From: a virus
Lineage: Duplodnaviria > Heunggongvirae > Uroviricota > Caudoviricetes
Virus record (IMG/VR): IMGVR_UViG_2700989400_000004
Location: 6,939 to 70,938 of that record
Length of the DNA: 64,000 nucleotides
Reading direction: 5' to 3' (one strand)
Positions 1,137 to 9,914 of this stretch are shown piece after piece. Within the stretch, counting starts at the first letter, position 1; each line of letters begins with the position of its first letter. The translations under genes and the position numbers were made by a program. The notes under the pieces were generated by a model. It was not told the DNA's origin and did no database searches. It saw nothing but the letters and a program-made list of their open reading frames with translations.

Positions 1137-1502
1137 TTACCCATGACTTCCCCCCTGAATGATCCGGTAATCGCAACGGGTCAGCAGTTCGCTAAATTCC
1201 GGCAGTGTTCCGAAACAGCAATCATCACGCAGCCGTTCGCGGGATACCTCGACGCCGTTTTCGTAGTGACTCACCATGCGTCCGGTAAAATGCAGATCAT
1301 CATCGTGATGGTTCGTTAACGGCTTAATAAGTCGCGCACGTTCTGCCAGTTCCAGCAATGCTTCAACGCTTCCGGCAATTGCACCATCCGGCAGGTGATA
1401 ATTACTTACCACGCGTCCATTCTCCACGTTAACCAGTAGCTGCTCGGTGAATTTCTCACGAAACTGAATGCTGTTAAGGTCAGAAATTGACAGGTTATGC
1501 AT
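1137..1502 (-). CDS. hypothetical protein (121 aa)
   Basis: ATG at 1502 preceded by AGGAGG; start overlaps stop of upstream gene (ATGCATAA). Confidence 0.5.
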   Translation of the reverse strand: MHNLSISDLNSIQFREKFTEQLLVNVENGRVVSNYHLPDGAIAGSVEALLELAERARLIKPLTNHHDDDLHFTGRMVSHYENGVEVSRERLRDDCCFGTLPEFSELLTRCDYRIIQGGSHG

Positions 1503-1860
1503 GGTGCACCTCCTGGCGAATACGGGCAGCGAATACCATCACGCAGCCATCAGGAGATTGCTGACGCGCTTCCTGTTCGCTGGTGGCCTCGATGTGAATT
1601 ACGCGCGGTTGTGCTGTGCTCAGGGCGATAAAACGCCAGATAAAATTGTTCTCGCATTTCTGAATAAACAGCGTGTTTTCTTCGCGCCCTTTCCATGTTG
1701 CCGAGATATAGCCCATGTCATTGAGCATCTCGCAGGCATCAACCAGCGTATCAGCGGCTACGTGTACAGTGTTTTTACCGTCAGCTATGCAATCACGGTG
1801 CACCGCCAGGAAGGTGTATATAAATTTAGGGTGAGTTTGGGTATGCTGTGTTCCAGCCAT
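1495..1860 (-). CDS. hypothetical protein (121 aa), internal start of the long 1495..3081 frame
   Basis: ATG at 1860 with GAGGT 7 nt upstream; protein-like translation MAGTQHTQTHPKFIYTFLAVHRDC...; the frame upstream of 1860 is low-complexity. Confidence 0.45.
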   Translation of the reverse strand: MAGTQHTQTHPKFIYTFLAVHRDCIADGKNTVHVAADTLVDACEMLNDMGYISATWKGREENTLFIQKCENNFIWRFIALSTAQPRVIHIEATSEQEARQQSPDGCVMVFAARIRQEVHHA

Positions 1861-1925
1861 AATCGTTACCTCGTTTAACGGTTTGGTTAGACGCCCTGCA
1901 TGTGTGCCACCACTGCGGGGCGTTG

Positions 1926-1960
1926 CTGTATATACACCACAATCATTAGTGTATATACAG
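1926..1960. promoter_or_regulatory. operator-like palindrome in divergent promoter region
   Basis: Perfect 12-bp inverted repeat CTGTATATACAC (1926-1937) / GTGTATATACAG (1949-1960) with 11-bp spacer, between divergent genes ending 1860 and starting 2051; further ACACACC/GGTGT repeats at 2000-2030. Confidence 0.4.
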
Positions 1961-2050
1961 ATTAGATTTAAGTGTGCTACAGTGTCAAGTGTTTTATCAA
2001 CACACCTTTTGGTGTAATGTGTACACACCTCAAAATAACCGGACATTCTG

Positions 2051-2356
2051 ATGGCAACAGGAAACATCAACAGCAGATCGCAAATGAAAAATATCCGCTT
2101 CCCCCATGATGTAATCGAGGAAATGGAAAATTCGAAAACGGAAGGGGAAACAATAGCCGCTTTCGTGATTACAGCCGTTCGCGGTGAAATCGCCCGCCGC
2201 CAGGCAGAAGGAAGCGGAGAAAATCCCCTGGTTTCTTCGCTCGATGCACTGGCGCAGGTGGAAAAAATCGGTGTCAAAGCAGCCGAGGAGATCGGGCAAC
2301 TCGTCACCGTCGCGCGTGAAGAACTCCAGCGGCGCAAGGCCAAAGAACAGGAGTAA
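2051..2356 (+). CDS. small regulator-like protein (possible ribbon-helix-helix), 101 aa
   Basis: Protein-like ORF (…NIRFPHDVIEEMEN…EIGQLVTVAREELQRRKAKEQE); N-terminal beta-strand/helix pattern resembles RHH proteins; weak RBS. Confidence 0.4.
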   Translation: MATGNINSRSQMKNIRFPHDVIEEMENSKTEGETIAAFVITAVRGEIARRQAEGSGENPLVSSLDALAQVEKIGVKAAEEIGQLVTVAREELQRRKAKEQE

Positions 2357-3073
2357 CCATCACCAGCGCCGTGGTGTGAGGAACTACGGTGCATCGTTTT
2401 ACAGGGCAGCGCCATGACCAACAAAGAATCAACCAATACACCATCACCGGCACGGAAAAGACAGCGCAGAAAGATAGCGTACGAGCATGAGTCAGACAGA
2501 TTCGCGCCCTGTGCGTTTATCCTTGAGAAATTCCTTAAAGAGTACAGGCGCACAAAAATGGGGTCGCATACCTGGAAAACATCGCGGCATGGCGATGTTA
2601 AAGAGCAGGAATAGCCCACCAGCAAGCCAGCATATTCACCATAATGACCCTCAGTTAAACCTAGAGTCATTGGTGCAAAGCTGACACATTGCCCACCAGC
2701 CGCAAATGTGGCATTGTTGGTGATGCGTTCAAGTATGTAGCTTTTCCACTGGCGGCTCTCTGCGGTCGCCTTTGTTTTATCCAGAACGAAATCAGACATC
2801 AGATTGATCAGCACCTGGCGACCTGACAAAATCGCATCAGTCGCGCCACCAGCAGTATTTTTTGCTTTCCGGACAGCTTGGCCAACTGCATTTTGCAGCA
2901 AAATATTCTGCATTTCTGGCTTACTGTGATAACAGTGATCAGCGCCTTCACTCTGTACGACCACAACGCTATAATCTGCCTCGTAGACAGTAAGCAATAT
3001 GGCGCAGTAAGCGACTTGTTCACAAAGGCGCTCCGGCAACGGGGCGCTTTTTCTTTTTGTAACGGTCAGAGCA

Positions 3074-3874
3074 TTACACATGGCTGTTTTCCTCCATGCG
3101 ACGGGCTAACCAACGCTGCGAAAGACGAATTAATTCAGCTTTCCGCTGGTGGTAGTCCTGGCCTAACTCAATCAGCGTGATATTGCTCTGCTCAAGGTAA
3201 GAAAGATGCTCAAGCTGCAACGTGCTCATGTGGTCGCGTGGTTCGCCTGTGATGCCGTTCGCCTGCGCCCACTGTTTTGCAGTCATGCCACCCAGCACGA
3301 TACGCGCCAGCATATTGGCTTCCGTGGTGTAGTGGTGCTGTAGAGTGTTTTTACCCAGCTCAGCCCGGTACGCCTCCAGCGCGGCACACATTGGCTTAAA
3401 GTAGCTGGCAACTGTGATACGGGCTTTCAGTTCCCGGCGTAACACTGCGGAACGCACTGGCGCTACCTTGTGTAGCTCCTCCTCGCATTTGATAAAGTAC
3501 TGACGAACGGCGCGGCCCTGTTCGGTGCGTTCGACCATCGCCAGTTCTTTCGCCATGTTCACTGTGATGATGTACTCAAGAGCTGTTTGCTGGCGAGATT
3601 TTGCGCTCACCGGATCGGGTCGGCTCAAATATTCAACAACCTCATAATCCACGCCTTCCGTGAACCCGTATTCTTCAATGCGCCCCTTGATCCACGAACG
3701 GAAAACGCGCCCTACACCTAACGCCTTATGTAACGCTCTGGCGCTAACAATAGTGGTTTCACGCCCACCAATAACGCCGGAAATAACCGGAATAATTTCA
3801 GCGAAATTTTGCAGATTCTGTTTTTCAGGCCGAACGAAGCCCCGCCCCTGTACAGGCGTATATCCAGTATTCAT
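3074..3874 (-). CDS. phage antirepressor-like protein (Ant/KilAC-type)
   Basis: 266-aa ORF with N-terminal motif ALHKALGV…FRSWIK…YGFTEGVDY typical of phage antirepressor N-domains; sits downstream of alpA in the island. Confidence 0.5.
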   Translation of the reverse strand: MNTGYTPVQGRGFVRPEKQNLQNFAEIIPVISGVIGGRETTIVSARALHKALGVGRVFRSWIKGRIEEYGFTEGVDYEVVEYLSRPDPVSAKSRQQTALEYIITVNMAKELAMVERTEQGRAVRQYFIKCEEELHKVAPVRSAVLRRELKARITVASYFKPMCAALEAYRAELGKNTLQHHYTTEANMLARIVLGGMTAKQWAQANGITGEPRDHMSTLQLEHLSYLEQSNITLIELGQDYHQRKAELIRLSQRWLARRMEENSHV

Positions 3875-3926
3875 GGTTAAATCTCTGTATTAGTGGATGG
3901 GAGGCGGCTGTGTGCCGCCAGCCTGA

Positions 3927-4115
3927 TTAGTGAACTGCCTCGCGGCTGTCCTTCCATGCCAGAACTTCGGATAAAGACCAGCCAACGGAACGACCACCGA
4001 GTTTACGCCGTGATGGGAATTGTCCGGCTTTTTCCAGGCGGTAGCGGCATGAACGGCTCAGGCCTGTAAGTTGCTGACATTCTTTTTCACGTATAAAGCG
4101 ATCTGTGCTTAACAC
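3927..4115 (-). CDS. alpA: AlpA-family phage transcriptional regulator
   Basis: 62 aa, GTG start with AGGGGGA SD; motif LTGLSRSCRYRLEKAGQFPSRRKLGGRSVGWSLSEVLAW matches AlpA/Vis HTH family; immediately downstream of integrase. Confidence 0.7.
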   Translation of the reverse strand: MLSTDRFIREKECQQLTGLSRSCRYRLEKAGQFPSRRKLGGRSVGWSLSEVLAWKDSREAVH

Positions 4116-4478
4116 AATTCCCCCTTTGTTGTTTCTTAAAGAGTCATTGGGTGGATTATTGGGTTGGGTCGGATTGTGTCAGGGTGTTTATGGAATGGCA
4201 AACACTGGTGGCGGTCGTTTTACAGAAGTGGGGTAATGAGAATAAAAACTTTTTTAATTCATTGTGATGCAGTAGCGTAAAATTCTGTTTTTACGCCCTT
4301 TTTTACATGCTTTTAAGAGTGATTCGCCAATGTACAAAAAGCCAGTAAAACGACTGAAAATCAACTTTTTAGGGTGTCGGTCAGATGATAATCAAGTTTG
4401 TTCCAGATTGTTCGCCGTTGTTCGTCGTGGTGTCTCGTTGTTTCACGTTGTGTCCGTTCTGAAAAATCGCGAAAAAAA

Positions 4479-5972: not shown

Positions 5973-6066
5973 ACCGGCGCAGAGGAGACAATGCCGGATT
6001 TAAGACGCGGATGCACTGCTGTGTGTACTGTAGAGTCTGGCGGATGTCGACAGACTCTATTTTTTT
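5973..6066 (+). ncRNA. mcaS: small regulatory RNA McaS (IsrA)
   Basis: ~94-nt unit convergent with abgR as in E. coli K-12; GGA-containing 5' region (AGAGGAGACAAUG); intrinsic terminator stem AGAGTCTG/CAGACTCT (6033-6058) plus T7 run; -10-like TATAAC at 5961-5966. Confidence 0.65.
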
Positions 6067-6074
6067 ATGCAGTT

Positions 6075-6983
6075 TTAACTTTGCAGATAGCCGCATTCTC
6101 GCCGGAATTGCGTGATTAATGACGCGGTCAGTGGTGTCTGGCGACTATCACGCCGCTGAATCAAATAATAGGCCGCTTTCGGTAAAATTTCGCTAACCGG
6201 CAACATCACCAGCCCCTGTCCGTGCAAGGGATCGCAGCCCATTTCTTCAGGCAGTATGCTGAGAAAATCGCTTTTTGCCACCAGACTGATACAGGCTGAG
6301 AACGTCTCGCAGACTACACCGACCTGTGGCGTTTGCGCCTGATCGTCAAGCAATTCACTCAACTGTTTGTAGTAGCTGCCGTGTGGCGTCGGCATTGTCC
6401 AGCTGTAATCCAGTAACTGTTTGATCGAACGGGCACCAATGGCGGGGTGTCCCGGGCGGCAAAAGATCGCGAATTGCTTTTCCAGTAATTTCTCAAAAGT
6501 AAATTCGTGGTCGTACGGTCCCTGATAATAGGTATTGATGGTGAAATCCAATTCTCCCTGACGCAATTCATTAATCATCGACACCAGTTGCCCTTCCATA
6601 ATGCGTACTTTTACCTGCGGATGCTGCTGATGAAAACGAGATATGACAGCTGGCATCAGACTGCGGGAAATACTGGCCCCCATGCCGATATTAATCTGCC
6701 CTGCCAGTTGCCCTTGTCGTTGGCGAATATCCTCTTGGGCTGCGCGCAGTTCTTCAAGAATAAGACTGGCGTGCTGATAAAAACTTTCACCGGCATCAGT
6801 TAACGTCACGCCTTTACTACGGCGAAAAAAGAGTTGCGCCGCTAATCCTTCTTCCAGCTCCTGAATAGATTTACTCAGTGCCGGTTGCGACATATTCAAC
6901 ATTCGGCTCGCTCCGCGAATGCTGCCCTGACGAGCCACTTCAACAAAAGCACGAATTTGATGAATTTTTACCTGAAAAGCCAT
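6075..6983 (-). CDS. abgR: LysR-family transcriptional regulator AbgR
   Basis: 302-aa ORF with N-terminal LysR HTH (…IRGASRMLNMSQPALSKSIQELE…) and substrate-binding domain; divergent from the abgA operon. Confidence 0.9.
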   Translation of the reverse strand: MAFQVKIHQIRAFVEVARQGSIRGASRMLNMSQPALSKSIQELEEGLAAQLFFRRSKGVTLTDAGESFYQHASLILEELRAAQEDIRQRQGQLAGQINIGMGASISRSLMPAVISRFHQQHPQVKVRIMEGQLVSMINELRQGELDFTINTYYQGPYDHEFTFEKLLEKQFAIFCRPGHPAIGARSIKQLLDYSWTMPTPHGSYYKQLSELLDDQAQTPQVGVVCETFSACISLVAKSDFLSILPEEMGCDPLHGQGLVMLPVSEILPKAAYYLIQRRDSRQTPLTASLITQFRRECGYLQS

Positions 6984-7158
6984 GACGCCACCGATAACCG
7001 TTATTTATCAGACCAAAGAAACTGGCATCTACTTTAATGCAGATGATTGTGTCAGGGTAATTTATGAACGGTTAAAACTGTGAAAAATCAGTTAGTGATA
7101 AGTAAAAACTATCGCTACGTGAACCGGGTCACACTTTTTACTGATGACGGGAAAGGTT

Positions 7159-8469
7159 ATGGAGTCTTTGAATCAATTTGTTAATTCGCTTGCCCCAAAA
7201 TTATCGCACTGGCGACGTGATTTTCATCACTATGCAGAGTCTGGCTGGGTGGAATTCCGCACTGCCACCCTTGTTGCGGAAGAATTGCAGCAGCTCGGCT
7301 ATTCACTGGCGCTGGGCCGCGAAGTAGTTAATGAAAGTAGCCGGATGGGACTACCTGATGAACTCACTCTACAACGCGAATTCGAGCGCGCTCGTCAACA
7401 GGGTGCGCTAGCACAATGGATTGCGGTTTTTGAAGGTGGTTTCACTGGTATCGTCGCCACCCTGGATACCGGTCGCCCCGGTCCGGTGATGGCTTTCCGT
7501 GTCGATATGGACGCGCTGGATCTCAGTGAAGAGCAGGATGTCAGCCATCGCCCCTACCGCGACGGTTTTGCGTCATGTAACGCCGGAATGATGCATGCCT
7601 GTGGTCATGATGGACATACCGCCATTGGGCTTGGGCTGGCGCATACCCTTAAACAATTCGAGTCCGGACTACATGGCGTCATCAAACTGATTTTTCAGCC
7701 TGCAGAGGAAGGTACGCGTGGCGCGCGGGCGATGGTCGATGCAGGTGTCGTAGATGATGTTGATTATTTTACTGCCGTGCACATTGGCACTGGCGTACCT
7801 GCGGGCACCGTGGTGTGCGGCAGTGATAATTTTATGGCAACCACCAAATTTGACGCGCACTTCACCGGTACCGCCGCTCACGCAGGCGCAAAACCAGAAG
7901 ACGGTCACAATGCCTTGTTGGCGGCAGCACAAGCCACTCTTGCACTGCATGCAATCGCCCCGCACAGCGAAGGAGCTTCCAGAGTAAACGTGGGCGTTAT
8001 GCAGGCAGGAAGCGGTCGTAACGTTGTTCCTGCCTCGGCGTTGCTGAAAGTGGAAACACGCGGGGCCAGCGACGTCATTAATCAATATGTTTTTGACCGT
8101 GCACAACAAGCGATTCAGGGCGCAGCAACCATGTATGGTGTCGGCGTTGAAACTCGTCTGATGGGTGCAGCTACCGCCAGTTCTCCTTCGCCGCAATGGG
8201 TCGCATGGTTGCAAAGTCAGGCGGCTCAGGTCGCGGGGGTCAATCAGGCCATTGAACGTGTTGAAGCGCCTGCGGGTTCCGAAGATGCCACATTAATGAT
8301 GGCCCGCGTGCAGCAACATCAAGGGCAAGCCTCCTACGTGGTGTTTGGCACACAGCTGGCGGCAGGTCATCACAACGAAAAATTCGATTTTGACGAGCAG
8401 GTTCTCGCTATTGCCGTCGAAACGCTGGCGCGCACCGCGCTCAATTTTCCCTGGACGCGAGGTATCTGA
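7159..8469 (+). CDS. abgA: p-aminobenzoyl-glutamate hydrolase subunit A (M20 peptidase family)
   Basis: Start at MESLNQFVNSLAPKL with GGGAAAGG SD; M20 metal-binding motifs (…MHACGHDGH…); stop overlaps abgB start. Confidence 0.9.
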   Translation: MESLNQFVNSLAPKLSHWRRDFHHYAESGWVEFRTATLVAEELQQLGYSLALGREVVNESSRMGLPDELTLQREFERARQQGALAQWIAVFEGGFTGIVATLDTGRPGPVMAFRVDMDALDLSEEQDVSHRPYRDGFASCNAGMMHACGHDGHTAIGLGLAHTLKQFESGLHGVIKLIFQPAEEGTRGARAMVDAGVVDDVDYFTAVHIGTGVPAGTVVCGSDNFMATTKFDAHFTGTAAHAGAKPEDGHNALLAAAQATLALHAIAPHSEGASRVNVGVMQAGSGRNVVPASALLKVETRGASDVINQYVFDRAQQAIQGAATMYGVGVETRLMGAATASSPSPQWVAWLQSQAAQVAGVNQAIERVEAPAGSEDATLMMARVQQHQGQASYVVFGTQLAAGHHNEKFDFDEQVLAIAVETLARTALNFPWTRGI

Positions 8470-9914
8470 TGCAGGAAATCTATCGTTTTATCGACGATGC
8501 GATTGAAGCCGATCGCCAACGTTATACCGATATTGCCGATCAAATCTGGGATCATCCAGAAACACGTTTTGAAGAGTTCTGGTCAGCGGAGCATCTGGCT
8601 TCGGCGCTGGAATCTGCAGGCTTCACCGTTACCCGCAACGTAGGCAATATCCCAAATGCCTTTATTGCTTCGTTTGGTCAAGGCAAACCGGTTATCGCCC
8701 TGCTGGGAGAATATGACGCCCTGGCAGGTTTAAGTCAGCAAGCAGGTTGCGCGCAACCTACATCCGTGACGCCCGGTGAAAATGGTCACGGTTGCGGACA
8801 CAATTTGCTGGGAACCGCCGCCTTTGCCGCTGCAATAGCCGTCAAGAAATGGCTGGAACAATATGGGCAAGGCGGCACAGTGCGCTTTTATGGTTGTCCT
8901 GGCGAAGAAGGCGGCTCGGGTAAAACGTTCATGGTCCGCGAGGGGGTATTTGATGATGTGGATGCGGCACTCACCTGGCACCCGGAAGCCTTTGCCGGTA
9001 TGTTCAATACACGCACGCTGGCAAACATTCAGGCATCATGGCGCTTTAAAGGGATCGCAGCACATGCCGCGAATTCCCCTCATTTGGGACGCAGCGCCCT
9101 TGATGCCGTAACGTTGATGACCACTGGCACCAACTTCCTCAACGAACATATTATTGAAAAAGCGCGCGTACACTATGCCATCACAGATAGCGGCGGGATC
9201 TCGCCCAACGTGGTCCAGGCGCAGGCAGAAGTGCTTTATCTTATCCGTGCCCCCGAAATGACCGACGTGCAGCATATTTATGATCGGGTCGCCAAAATCG
9301 CCGAATGTGCGGCATTGATGACCGAAACCACGGTTGAATGCCGCTTCGACAAAGCCTGTTCCAGTTATCTCCCGAATCGCACCTTAGAAAATGCCATGTA
9401 CCATGCCCTATCCCATTTTGGTACCCCGGAATGGAACTCCGAAGAACTGGCTTTTGCGAAACAAATTCAGGCTACGCTCACCCCCAACGATCGGCAAAAC
9501 AGTCTGAATAATATCGCCGCAACCGGTGGCGAAAACGGCAAGGTTTTTGCACTACGTCATCGTGAAACGGTACTGGCGAATGAGGTCGCTCCATATGCCG
9601 CCACCGATAACGTGCTTGCGGCATCGACTGATGTCGGCGACGTCAGTTGGAAACTGCCTGTTGCCCAGTGTTTCAGCCCCTGTTTTGCCGTCGGTACACC
9701 GCTACATACGTGGCAACTGGTTAGCCAGGGGCGAACATCTATTGCTCATAAAGGAATGCTGCTGGCGGCGAAAACTATGGCAGCAACCACAGTCAATCTC
9801 TTCATTGATTCAGGGCTATTGCAAGAATGCCAACAAGAGCATCAGCAAGTTACGGACACGCAACCGTATCACTGCCCTATCCCGAAAAACGTGACACCGT
9901 CACCTTTAAAATAA
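8469..9914 (+). CDS. abgB: p-aminobenzoyl-glutamate hydrolase subunit B (M20 peptidase family)
   Basis: 481-aa ORF with M20 signature (…GHGCGHNLLGT…), coupled to abgA. Confidence 0.9.
   Translation: MQEIYRFIDDAIEADRQRYTDIADQIWDHPETRFEEFWSAEHLASALESAGFTVTRNVGNIPNAFIASFGQGKPVIALLGEYDALAGLSQQAGCAQPTSVTPGENGHGCGHNLLGTAAFAAAIAVKKWLEQYGQGGTVRFYGCPGEEGGSGKTFMVREGVFDDVDAALTWHPEAFAGMFNTRTLANIQASWRFKGIAAHAANSPHLGRSALDAVTLMTTGTNFLNEHIIEKARVHYAITDSGGISPNVVQAQAEVLYLIRAPEMTDVQHIYDRVAKIAECAALMTETTVECRFDKACSSYLPNRTLENAMYHALSHFGTPEWNSEELAFAKQIQATLTPNDRQNSLNNIAATGGENGKVFALRHRETVLANEVAPYAATDNVLAASTDVGDVSWKLPVAQCFSPCFAVGTPLHTWQLVSQGRTSIAHKGMLLAAKTMAATTVNLFIDSGLLQECQQEHQQVTDTQPYHCPIPKNVTPSPLK

Follow-up and report, generated by a model that had tools for sequence, protein, structure and literature searches.

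We analysed a 64,000-nt stretch of DNA from a virus of the Caudoviricetes (positions 6,939 to 70,938 of IMG/VR record IMGVR_UViG_2700989400_000004; hereafter the window), which carries a minus-strand open reading frame (ORF) of 528 codons at positions 1495–3081. This long ORF encloses two small ORFs on the opposite strand and finishes in frame as an Icd-like/Kil gene. We consider it probable that it is the counterpart of eta/kil of phage P4, that is, a read-through frame selected for the passage of ribosomes, with an antisense repressor cassette replacing the CI/C4 immunity RNA. The first 5800 nt of the window, where the ORF lies, are the left arm of a ~13-kb phage satellite of the phage-inducible chromosomal island (PICI) type. 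This DNA is 100% identical to that of E. coli 442/2.

The translation start of the long ORF (3079–3095, minus strand, as read from the sequence) comprises ATG 3081–3079 and a GGAGG Shine-Dalgarno (SD) sequence at 3095–3091, 9 nt 5′ of the start codon. Upstream on the same strand is ant (3074–3874), which encodes an AntA/AntB antirepressor-family protein (Pfam PF08346, E = 2e-23) and is also called by the NCBI Prokaryotic Genome Annotation Pipeline (PGAP). The ATG of the long ORF overlaps the ant stop codon, TAA at 3076–3074, by 8 nt: ATGTGTAA. The minus frame runs for 536 codons without a stop, and the ORF listing gives 528 aa from the ATG. At its other end, the stop codon overlaps the ATG of the next minus-strand gene within ATGCATAA (1502–1495), again by 8 nt; this gene (1137–1502) encodes 121 aa and matches phrog_340/2512. 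By the ORF listing and PGAP, all other genes from ant to the primase gene of the island overlap or abut, and the long ORF thus closes what would be the sole untranslated gap, of 1.2 kb. Wholly enclosed on the plus strand are ylcI (2051–2356) and an ORF of 66 aa (2414–2614). The minus-strand RNA across ylcI is rich in U and C, with a plus-strand AT skew of +0.25 to +0.44, a compositional hint at a Rho-dependent terminator here.

The last 121 codons of the long ORF form the nested Icd-like/Kil gene (1495–1860, minus strand; NF033153, E = 6e-23). The product scores 80.6 bits against a cut-off of 25 for this 48-residue model, which aligns to residues 73–116. PGAP calls a shorter version, at 1495–1716, of 73 aa. 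The 121-aa form is supported by its ATG at 1860, by an SD sequence, GAGG, at 1872–1869, 8 nt upstream, and by a start context, LTKPLNEVTIMAG, that is kept across genera. A tandem duplication of the Icd domain within the 121-aa product was considered and is unsupported, the sole match being 8 residues long with E = 0.05. An earlier note on this DNA, made from the sequence alone, had described the 528-aa frame as a composite, with a separately startable gene in its last 121 codons, a middle that runs antisense to a genuine plus-strand gene at 2051–2356, and a first codon coupled to an Ant-like gene. All three parts of that description hold, the plus-strand gene proving to be a member of the YlcI/YnfO family. 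What the note did not recognise was the P4 eta/kil architecture of the locus.

The long-ORF frame contains no stop codons, against 6 and 12 in the other two minus frames over 2615–3081, and 6 and 6 over 1861–2050. In simulations, the probability of an open frame was <2e-4 for 2615–3078, 0.60 for 2357–2413 and 0.032 for 1861–2050, with 0.19–0.34 across ylcI and 0.18–0.23 across the 66-aa ORF; the joint null probability over these five upstream segments is ~4e-7.

The open frame recurs well beyond the window. Comparison loci were picked by tblastn with the 51-aa Icd domain alone, so that the sampling is independent of the upstream sequence. One sample, for which P4 Kil was left out of the query alignment, comprised 14 loci from different species; the other comprised 62 metagenome loci in 41 clusters. 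Across genera, 234–367 in-frame codons are open upstream of the Icd domain in 9 of the 14 loci, including those of Klebsiella, Enterobacter, Rahnella, Rosenbergiella, Intestinirhabdus, Superficieibacter and Acerihabitans. Open stretches in the other frames measure 0–41 codons, except in three loci that have a 157–180-codon ORF in the +1 frame. In the metagenome sample, the Icd frame is open upstream for at least 160 codons in 38 of 41 clusters, with a median of ~320, against 0–72 in other frames. The upstream sequences of loci with the in-frame extension are largely unrelated to one another. Closer to home, E. coli alleles that diverge from the window by 3–20% over 2615–3081 are all open, and indels in the homologous part of this segment are multiples of 3, either singly or net. 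Our first view of the long ORF, as a chance composite, was dropped after these Icd-anchored samples.

The coupled start recurs as well. The long ORF overlaps the upstream stop codon by 4–17 nt in 7 of the 9 open cross-genus loci, and starts within 10 nt of it in 8; the upstream genes encode Ant, Bro or AlpA-like proteins on the same strand. Among the 41 metagenome representatives, 29 have a start codon no more than 25 nt from the stop of an upstream ORF, and in 14 of these the overlap is 8 nt, as in the window. In two islands of the C4 type (loci L004 and L017), the long upstream ORF lies out of frame with the Icd-like gene, at +1.

Antisense to the middle of the long ORF, ylcI (2051–2356, plus strand) encodes a small protein of 101 aa of the YlcI/YnfO family, called by PGAP and matching the N-terminal family model NF041551 with E = 8e-18 and 64.2 bits, against a cut-off of 30. 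Its 138 homologues, spread across Enterobacterales, are mostly 99–103 aa long and 53–99% identical. With a dN/dS (the ratio of nonsynonymous to synonymous substitution rates) of 0.32–0.35, and by this conservation, YlcI is a real protein. It is a probable repressor of the ribbon-helix-helix (Arc/CopG) type, whose members dimerise and bind DNA through a strand-helix-helix fold at the N-terminus. On the structural side the fold is only suggestive: the AlphaFold monomer (mean predicted local distance difference test score 79.5) begins with an extended stretch, and helices come after it at residues 19–28 and 35–54, the top matches of a fold search in the PDB, Arc and CdbA, are non-significant (E = 1.8–9), and one UniRef name among the homologues is 'CopG family'. 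Downstream of ylcI, the basic 66-aa ORF (2414–2614, plus strand; PGAP WP_000182301.1; phrog_21027, E = 8e-33) has a dN/dS of 0.25–0.54 and an ambiguous codon-usage score, and its homologues are found only in the E. coli islands L001–L011. It is probably a gene, with moderate support.

The two strands are held in a fixed register. A small opposite-strand gene lies inside every long ORF examined, belonging either to the YlcI-like family or to a second family that ends in ..WIKRIIRKELQ... In 10 of 10 loci, the third codon positions of this antisense gene face those of the long ORF, and the same wobble-to-wobble phase is found in 28 of 29 metagenome representatives with a YlcI motif, the exception having a broken long ORF. 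Synonymous resampling of ylcI and the 66-aa ORF indicated that this is, among the three antisense phases, the one with the fewest expected stops. The second small antisense family, with the motif ..DGD.S...WIKRIIRKELQ.RGIEPK., takes the position and phase of ylcI at 1632–1811 in locus L021 (Rahnella), 3155–3334 in L025 (Rosenbergiella) and 3152–3322 in L030 (Acerihabitans).

While the frame is kept open, the peptide is, as far as sequence comparison can tell, without amino-acid constraint. In 2686–3081, the dN/dS of the long-ORF frame is 0.5–0.7, no lower than in the wrong frames. Over 2051–2356, dN/dS is uninformative for ylcI versus the long ORF, as their third codon positions coincide, and the low value of the long-ORF frame there follows from the wobble positions that both share. 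Searches against Pfam, NCBIfam, PHROGs and PDB sequences gave no match upstream of the Icd domain; for the 528-aa product as a whole, no Pfam family was found at E ≤ 0.1, and the Ash family, PF10554, was unmatched. Residues 1–407 are thus free of any recognisable domain and, in the part encoded by 2686–3081, of frame-specific purifying selection. A protein family of ~280 aa, suggested by homologues of low identity and full coverage, was considered and dropped, since the alignment proved to be a mosaic of DNA-level blocks and not the product of uniform divergence; these short blocks come and go among homologues. The earlier note had named, as grounds for refuting its view, homologous islands with one intact 528-aa protein whose domains are conserved along its whole length. 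Intact long ORFs are present in such islands, but the conserved domains are not, the part upstream of Icd being mosaic.

The short 'peptide motifs' that are conserved among long ORFs are nucleic-acid elements read in this frame, namely two plus-strand terminators (t1 and t2) and a hairpin in the icd leader. The first terminator lies in the 3′ part of a conserved ~100-nt module (2681–2781, plus strand), of which hundreds of E. coli genomes carry a copy that is ~84% identical; it consists of a hairpin at 2751–2770 followed by TTTGTTTT up to 2780, in the manner of an intrinsic terminator. Its folding energy is -12 kcal/mol on the plus strand versus -7.4 on the minus strand, and in 11 diverged loci 98.7% of alignment cells in the hairpin are paired, G-U pairs included. 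Read on the minus strand, t1 gives the motif KTKATAE.RQ...AGGQC of long ORFs. The second, t2 (3024–3060, plus strand), is a strong intrinsic terminator with a 12-bp stem, 7 GC pairs and a T tract, placed immediately ahead of the stop codon of ant, which converges on it. Its folding energy is -20.5 kcal/mol (z = -4.7) on the plus strand versus -13.3 on the minus strand; it is kept in the Salmonella locus L013, and gives the motif SAPLPER when read on the minus strand. A promoter-like site, TTCACT-17-TATAAT (2947–2975, plus strand), lies ~50 nt upstream of t2 and could yield a small RNA of ~80 nt, antisense to the beginning of the long ORF. For 2947–3060 on this strand, even the top Rfam matches are below threshold (ctRNA_p42d, 19 bits).

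The icd leader (1864–1925, minus strand) is structured. Repeat searches and RNAalifold identified a conserved hairpin with arms at 1891–1900 and 1914–1923, and a smaller hairpin at 1880–1864 displays the GAGG SD sequence in its loop. In 10 diverged loci, 7 of 17 pairs predicted by RNAalifold show compensatory changes. The leader matched no Rfam family above threshold, the top hit being an R1162-like antisense RNA with 17.9 bits. Read in the long-ORF frame, the conserved hairpin gives the AGRLT motif, which in the window appears as ..THAGRLTKP... A ~97-nt segment at 1801–1897 has 78–79% identity to unannotated DNA of the phages mEp460_ev081, Morganella IME1369_01 and Klebsiella P12620-1.

Upstream of the leader we found a putative internal promoter for icd (1926–1988, minus strand), with a -35 element TTGACA at 1988–1983, an 18-nt spacer and a -10 element TAATCT at 1964–1959. 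This region contains operator-like repeats, among them a perfect 12-nt inverted repeat, CTGTATATACAC/GTGTATATACAG, at 1926–1937 and 1949–1960. In 10 of 11 ylcI–icd divergent regions compared, TTGACR precedes a GTGT..CAC element that is specific to the island and present twice, which is the pattern that would be expected for operators of allele-specific repressors. The paired elements differ among islands (1926–1988 in the window; loci L003, L008, L010, L013, L016, L018, L019, L026 and L028) and appear to vary together with the YlcI variant, a hint that the islands differ in immunity specificity.

These observations bear on three other explanations of the long ORF. The strongest of them, though we judge it unlikely, is that the ORF encodes a sequence-specific Eta-like protein with Icd/Kil as its C-terminus, in which the peptide is selected and the overlap with ylcI is a true coding overlap. 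A conserved open frame with a coupled start would be expected of such a gene. Codon-usage scoring, which the earlier note had proposed and which we carried out, also favours the long-ORF frame over 2615–3081 (log-odds 0.17–0.32, against 0.2–0.47 for real genes here), while the ylcI frame scores best over 2051–2356. In many genomes PGAP places 'Icd-like protein' entries of 214–310 aa at the position of the long ORF, and in PMC10111431 P4 eta counts as a protein-coding gene. Against this stand the missing frame-specific purifying selection in 2686–3081, the mosaic nature of the homologues, the coincidence of the conserved motifs with t1, t2 and the leader hairpin, and the lack of domain or structure matches upstream of Icd, together with a low-complexity composition rich in Ser, Cys and Arg.

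A second explanation is that of a gene beginning at 3081 which decayed, losing both its function and its stop, and became fused to icd by read-through. The earlier note had offered this as one of two alternatives, the other being an antisense-overlapping gene pair. Coding-like codon usage in 2615–3081 with an unconstrained dN/dS is what a recent pseudogene would show, and 2782–3001 is an insertion relative to loci L012 and L013. However, decay should bring stops and frameshifts, yet alleles up to 20% divergent stay open with in-frame indels only; islands that lack 2782–3001 nevertheless keep a long ORF, which then starts at the t1 module; and none of 134 hits is an intact homologue of residues 1–150 that ends at a stop of its own and has a recognisable domain. 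As the open frame, the coupling and the phase recur in dozens of diverged islands, decay is contradicted by the comparative data, which favour the antisense-overlapping pair, and we regard it as very improbable. Least credible of all is that a real Icd-like gene lies by chance or through an annotation artefact behind fortuitously stop-free DNA, with nothing translated or selected upstream of 1860: the antisense frame is fairly often open over ylcI and the 66-aa ORF, the long ORF is missing from the PGAP annotation of the identical E. coli record and no domains occur upstream of Icd, but the joint null probability, the in-frame extension in both Icd-anchored samples, and the conserved coupling, antisense phase and frame-preserving indels contradict it.

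The locus can instead be compared with P4. There, in the left operon, a 214-codon ORF (8168–8812) spans c4-a1b1, isrK and the C4/CI RNA and ends as the 65-aa Icd-like Kil; it starts either at the ATGA that overlaps the stop codon of vis, an AlpA homologue, or slightly upstream of it. According to PMC10111431, which summarises Forti et al. (1999, J Bacteriol 181:5225), eta and kil are nested genes; transcription that begins at a constitutive promoter within eta soon terminates, and full-length Eta is made only from the upstream late promoter, its translation coupled to the alpA homologue. Translation of eta then blocks termination, so that the late transcript reads through. The same paper places eta in a 'Bro network' and notes eta-like genes in PICIs. 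The window and P4 are alike in having a long ORF in frame with Icd-like/Kil and sharing its stop, in the overlap of its start with the stop of an upstream gene of the regulatory operon (ATGTGTAA with ant here, ATGA with vis in P4), and in that the ORF spans the immunity region, with coupled replication genes, including the primase gene, downstream. In P4 the ORF also spans an internal, immunity-controlled promoter upstream of kil, for which the putative promoter at 1926–1988 is the candidate counterpart in the window. Unlike in P4, where eta holds CI/C4, an isrK-like element and seqA/c4-a1b1, the ORF in the window holds the antisense ylcI, the 66-aa ORF and two antisense terminators. It is also longer, 528 codons versus ~200, and is coupled to ant and not directly to alpA/vis.

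Several points weigh against an equivalence with eta/kil. The C4/CI RNA, isrK and c4-a1b1 were absent from the window in three Rfam runs, at thresholds of up to E ≤ 10; in the positive controls, all three were recovered in P4, and C4 and isrK in loci L004 and L017. Because the defining CI/C4 RNA with its seqA/seqC targets is missing, the analogy with P4 is architectural. A few relatives (loci L012, L084, L111 and L080) have a broken or frame-shifted long ORF, and shorter ORFs occur among homologues from complete genomes, so that the islands may tolerate breaks of this kind. A real peptide under weak constraint could also account for the coding-like codon usage of 2615–3081. Lastly, the putative icd promoter at 1926–1988 was not flagged by a consensus promoter scan and rests on its conservation across loci.

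Other systems share parts of the arrangement. The immI operons of P1 and P7, in the order c4 RNA, icd and ant, likewise combine a small gene of the Icd family with Ant. There, translation of icd is linked to transcription of downstream genes, in P1 following the logic of Rho-dependent polarity. The window differs in having ant before icd and no c4 RNA, whereas P1 is not known to have a long nested ORF or a protein gene antisense to one. Gram-negative PICIs such as EcCICFT073 (PMC6092414) have the same int–alpA–(Bro/Ant)–icd–primase layout within ~13 kb. In these elements, AlpA is a helper-induced activator of its own gene and of the downstream, rightward genes, and whether they have a repressor is, according to PMC6092414, unclear. 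Neither PMC6092414 nor the other literature that we found describes a read-through ORF or a YlcI cassette antisense to it.

The island in the window has the gene order int, alpA-like, ant, long-ORF region, icd, small ORFs and a DUF927 primase gene. It carries the int–alpA–primase core within a chromosomal island of ~10–15 kb by which Gram-negative PICIs are recognised, and the E. coli 442/2 copy sits between abgR and smrA. In that genome, PGAP lists int, an AlpA-like helix-turn-helix protein, ant, a blank at 2615–3073, the 66-aa ORF and ylcI (both plus strand) and the 73-aa Icd-like gene, followed by three small genes, the DUF927 primase, and then ProQ and PerC. Over homologous DNA the annotation is inconsistent: some islands have ylcI and the small ORF, others have minus-strand 'Icd-like' ORFs and pseudogenes that reach 310 aa, and others again have a pseudogene of the 'ash family'. 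The nested antisense arrangement explains this conflict. Database entries for the 'Ash family' and for long 'Icd-like' proteins represent the same kind of ORF as that in the window; although these names suggest a family of proteins, what is conserved in them is RNA or terminator elements, and the only part that the window has in common with an annotated ash pseudogene is the ~100-nt t1 module. In locus L004 (NZ_CM142689), the PGAP 'ash family' pseudogene at 3740–4108 is an ORF that spans the t1 module, isrK and the C4 RNA. An int–alpA RNA (Rfam RF02996) was found between int and alpA in related islands (7060–7127 in locus L002; also L016, L023, L024 and L026) and was undetected at E ≤ 1 in the window (4116–4478). 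Just beyond the integrase end of the island, at 5973–6068 on the plus strand, is a McaS/IsrA small RNA gene (RF00115, 118 bits).

Selection on this locus appears to act on ribosome passage and not on the peptide. We propose that, in the quiescent state, YlcI would repress the internal promoter of the icd–primase operon, and that the ylcI transcript would end at t1 or t2, ahead of the convergent ant gene. The short Icd-like/Kil protein, starting at ATG 1860, could be translated from transcripts that begin at the internal promoter (1926–1988). The long ORF, by comparison, would be translatable only from transcripts initiated upstream, in the alpA–ant operon that helper phages are expected to switch on. 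Upon induction, these transcripts would enter the ylcI/long-ORF region, and ribosomes that terminate at the ant stop codon could re-initiate at the overlapping ATG at 3081. Re-initiated ribosomes would then cross a 1.2-kb stretch of RNA that is rich in pyrimidines, otherwise codes for nothing and lies antisense to both ylcI and the 66-aa ORF, before they continue into icd and the coupled replication genes. By covering the RNA, they may prevent Rho-dependent termination and polarity across the immunity region, and induced transcription would thereby reach the replication genes, while convergent transcription would oppose the expression of ylcI. Under this model, selection would bear on the openness and phase of the frame rather than on the peptide, which matches the observed pattern.

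The eta/kil principle is already known, and long 'Icd-like' and 'ash' ORFs are already in the databases. In the literature that we found, there is no account of an antisense repressor gene that replaces an immunity RNA and is fully nested, wobble-to-wobble, in a read-through ORF, nor of YlcI as a candidate PICI repressor. It is possible, if somewhat doubtful, that the nested antisense pair forms a lysis-lysogeny switch in widespread satellites of Enterobacterales, in which YlcI would be the 'missing' repressor of Gram-negative PICIs, an ORF of 200–500 codons with an irrelevant peptide would have to be kept open for ribosomes that arrive by coupling from the induced alpA/ant operon, shield the RNA from Rho and take transcription across the repressor gene to the replication genes, and the wobble phase would let both constraints coexist.

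In bacteria, long antisense overlapping ORFs are usually dismissed as shadows of a real gene. With an open frame, a coupled start and a phase that are kept across genera while the peptide is unconstrained, the ORF described here is a clear candidate for one that is selected only for ribosome transit. It would extend the anti-termination logic of P4 eta/kil to PICI-type satellites without a CI RNA and, together with its island-specific operator-like repeats, makes YlcI a candidate repressor for Gram-negative PICIs.

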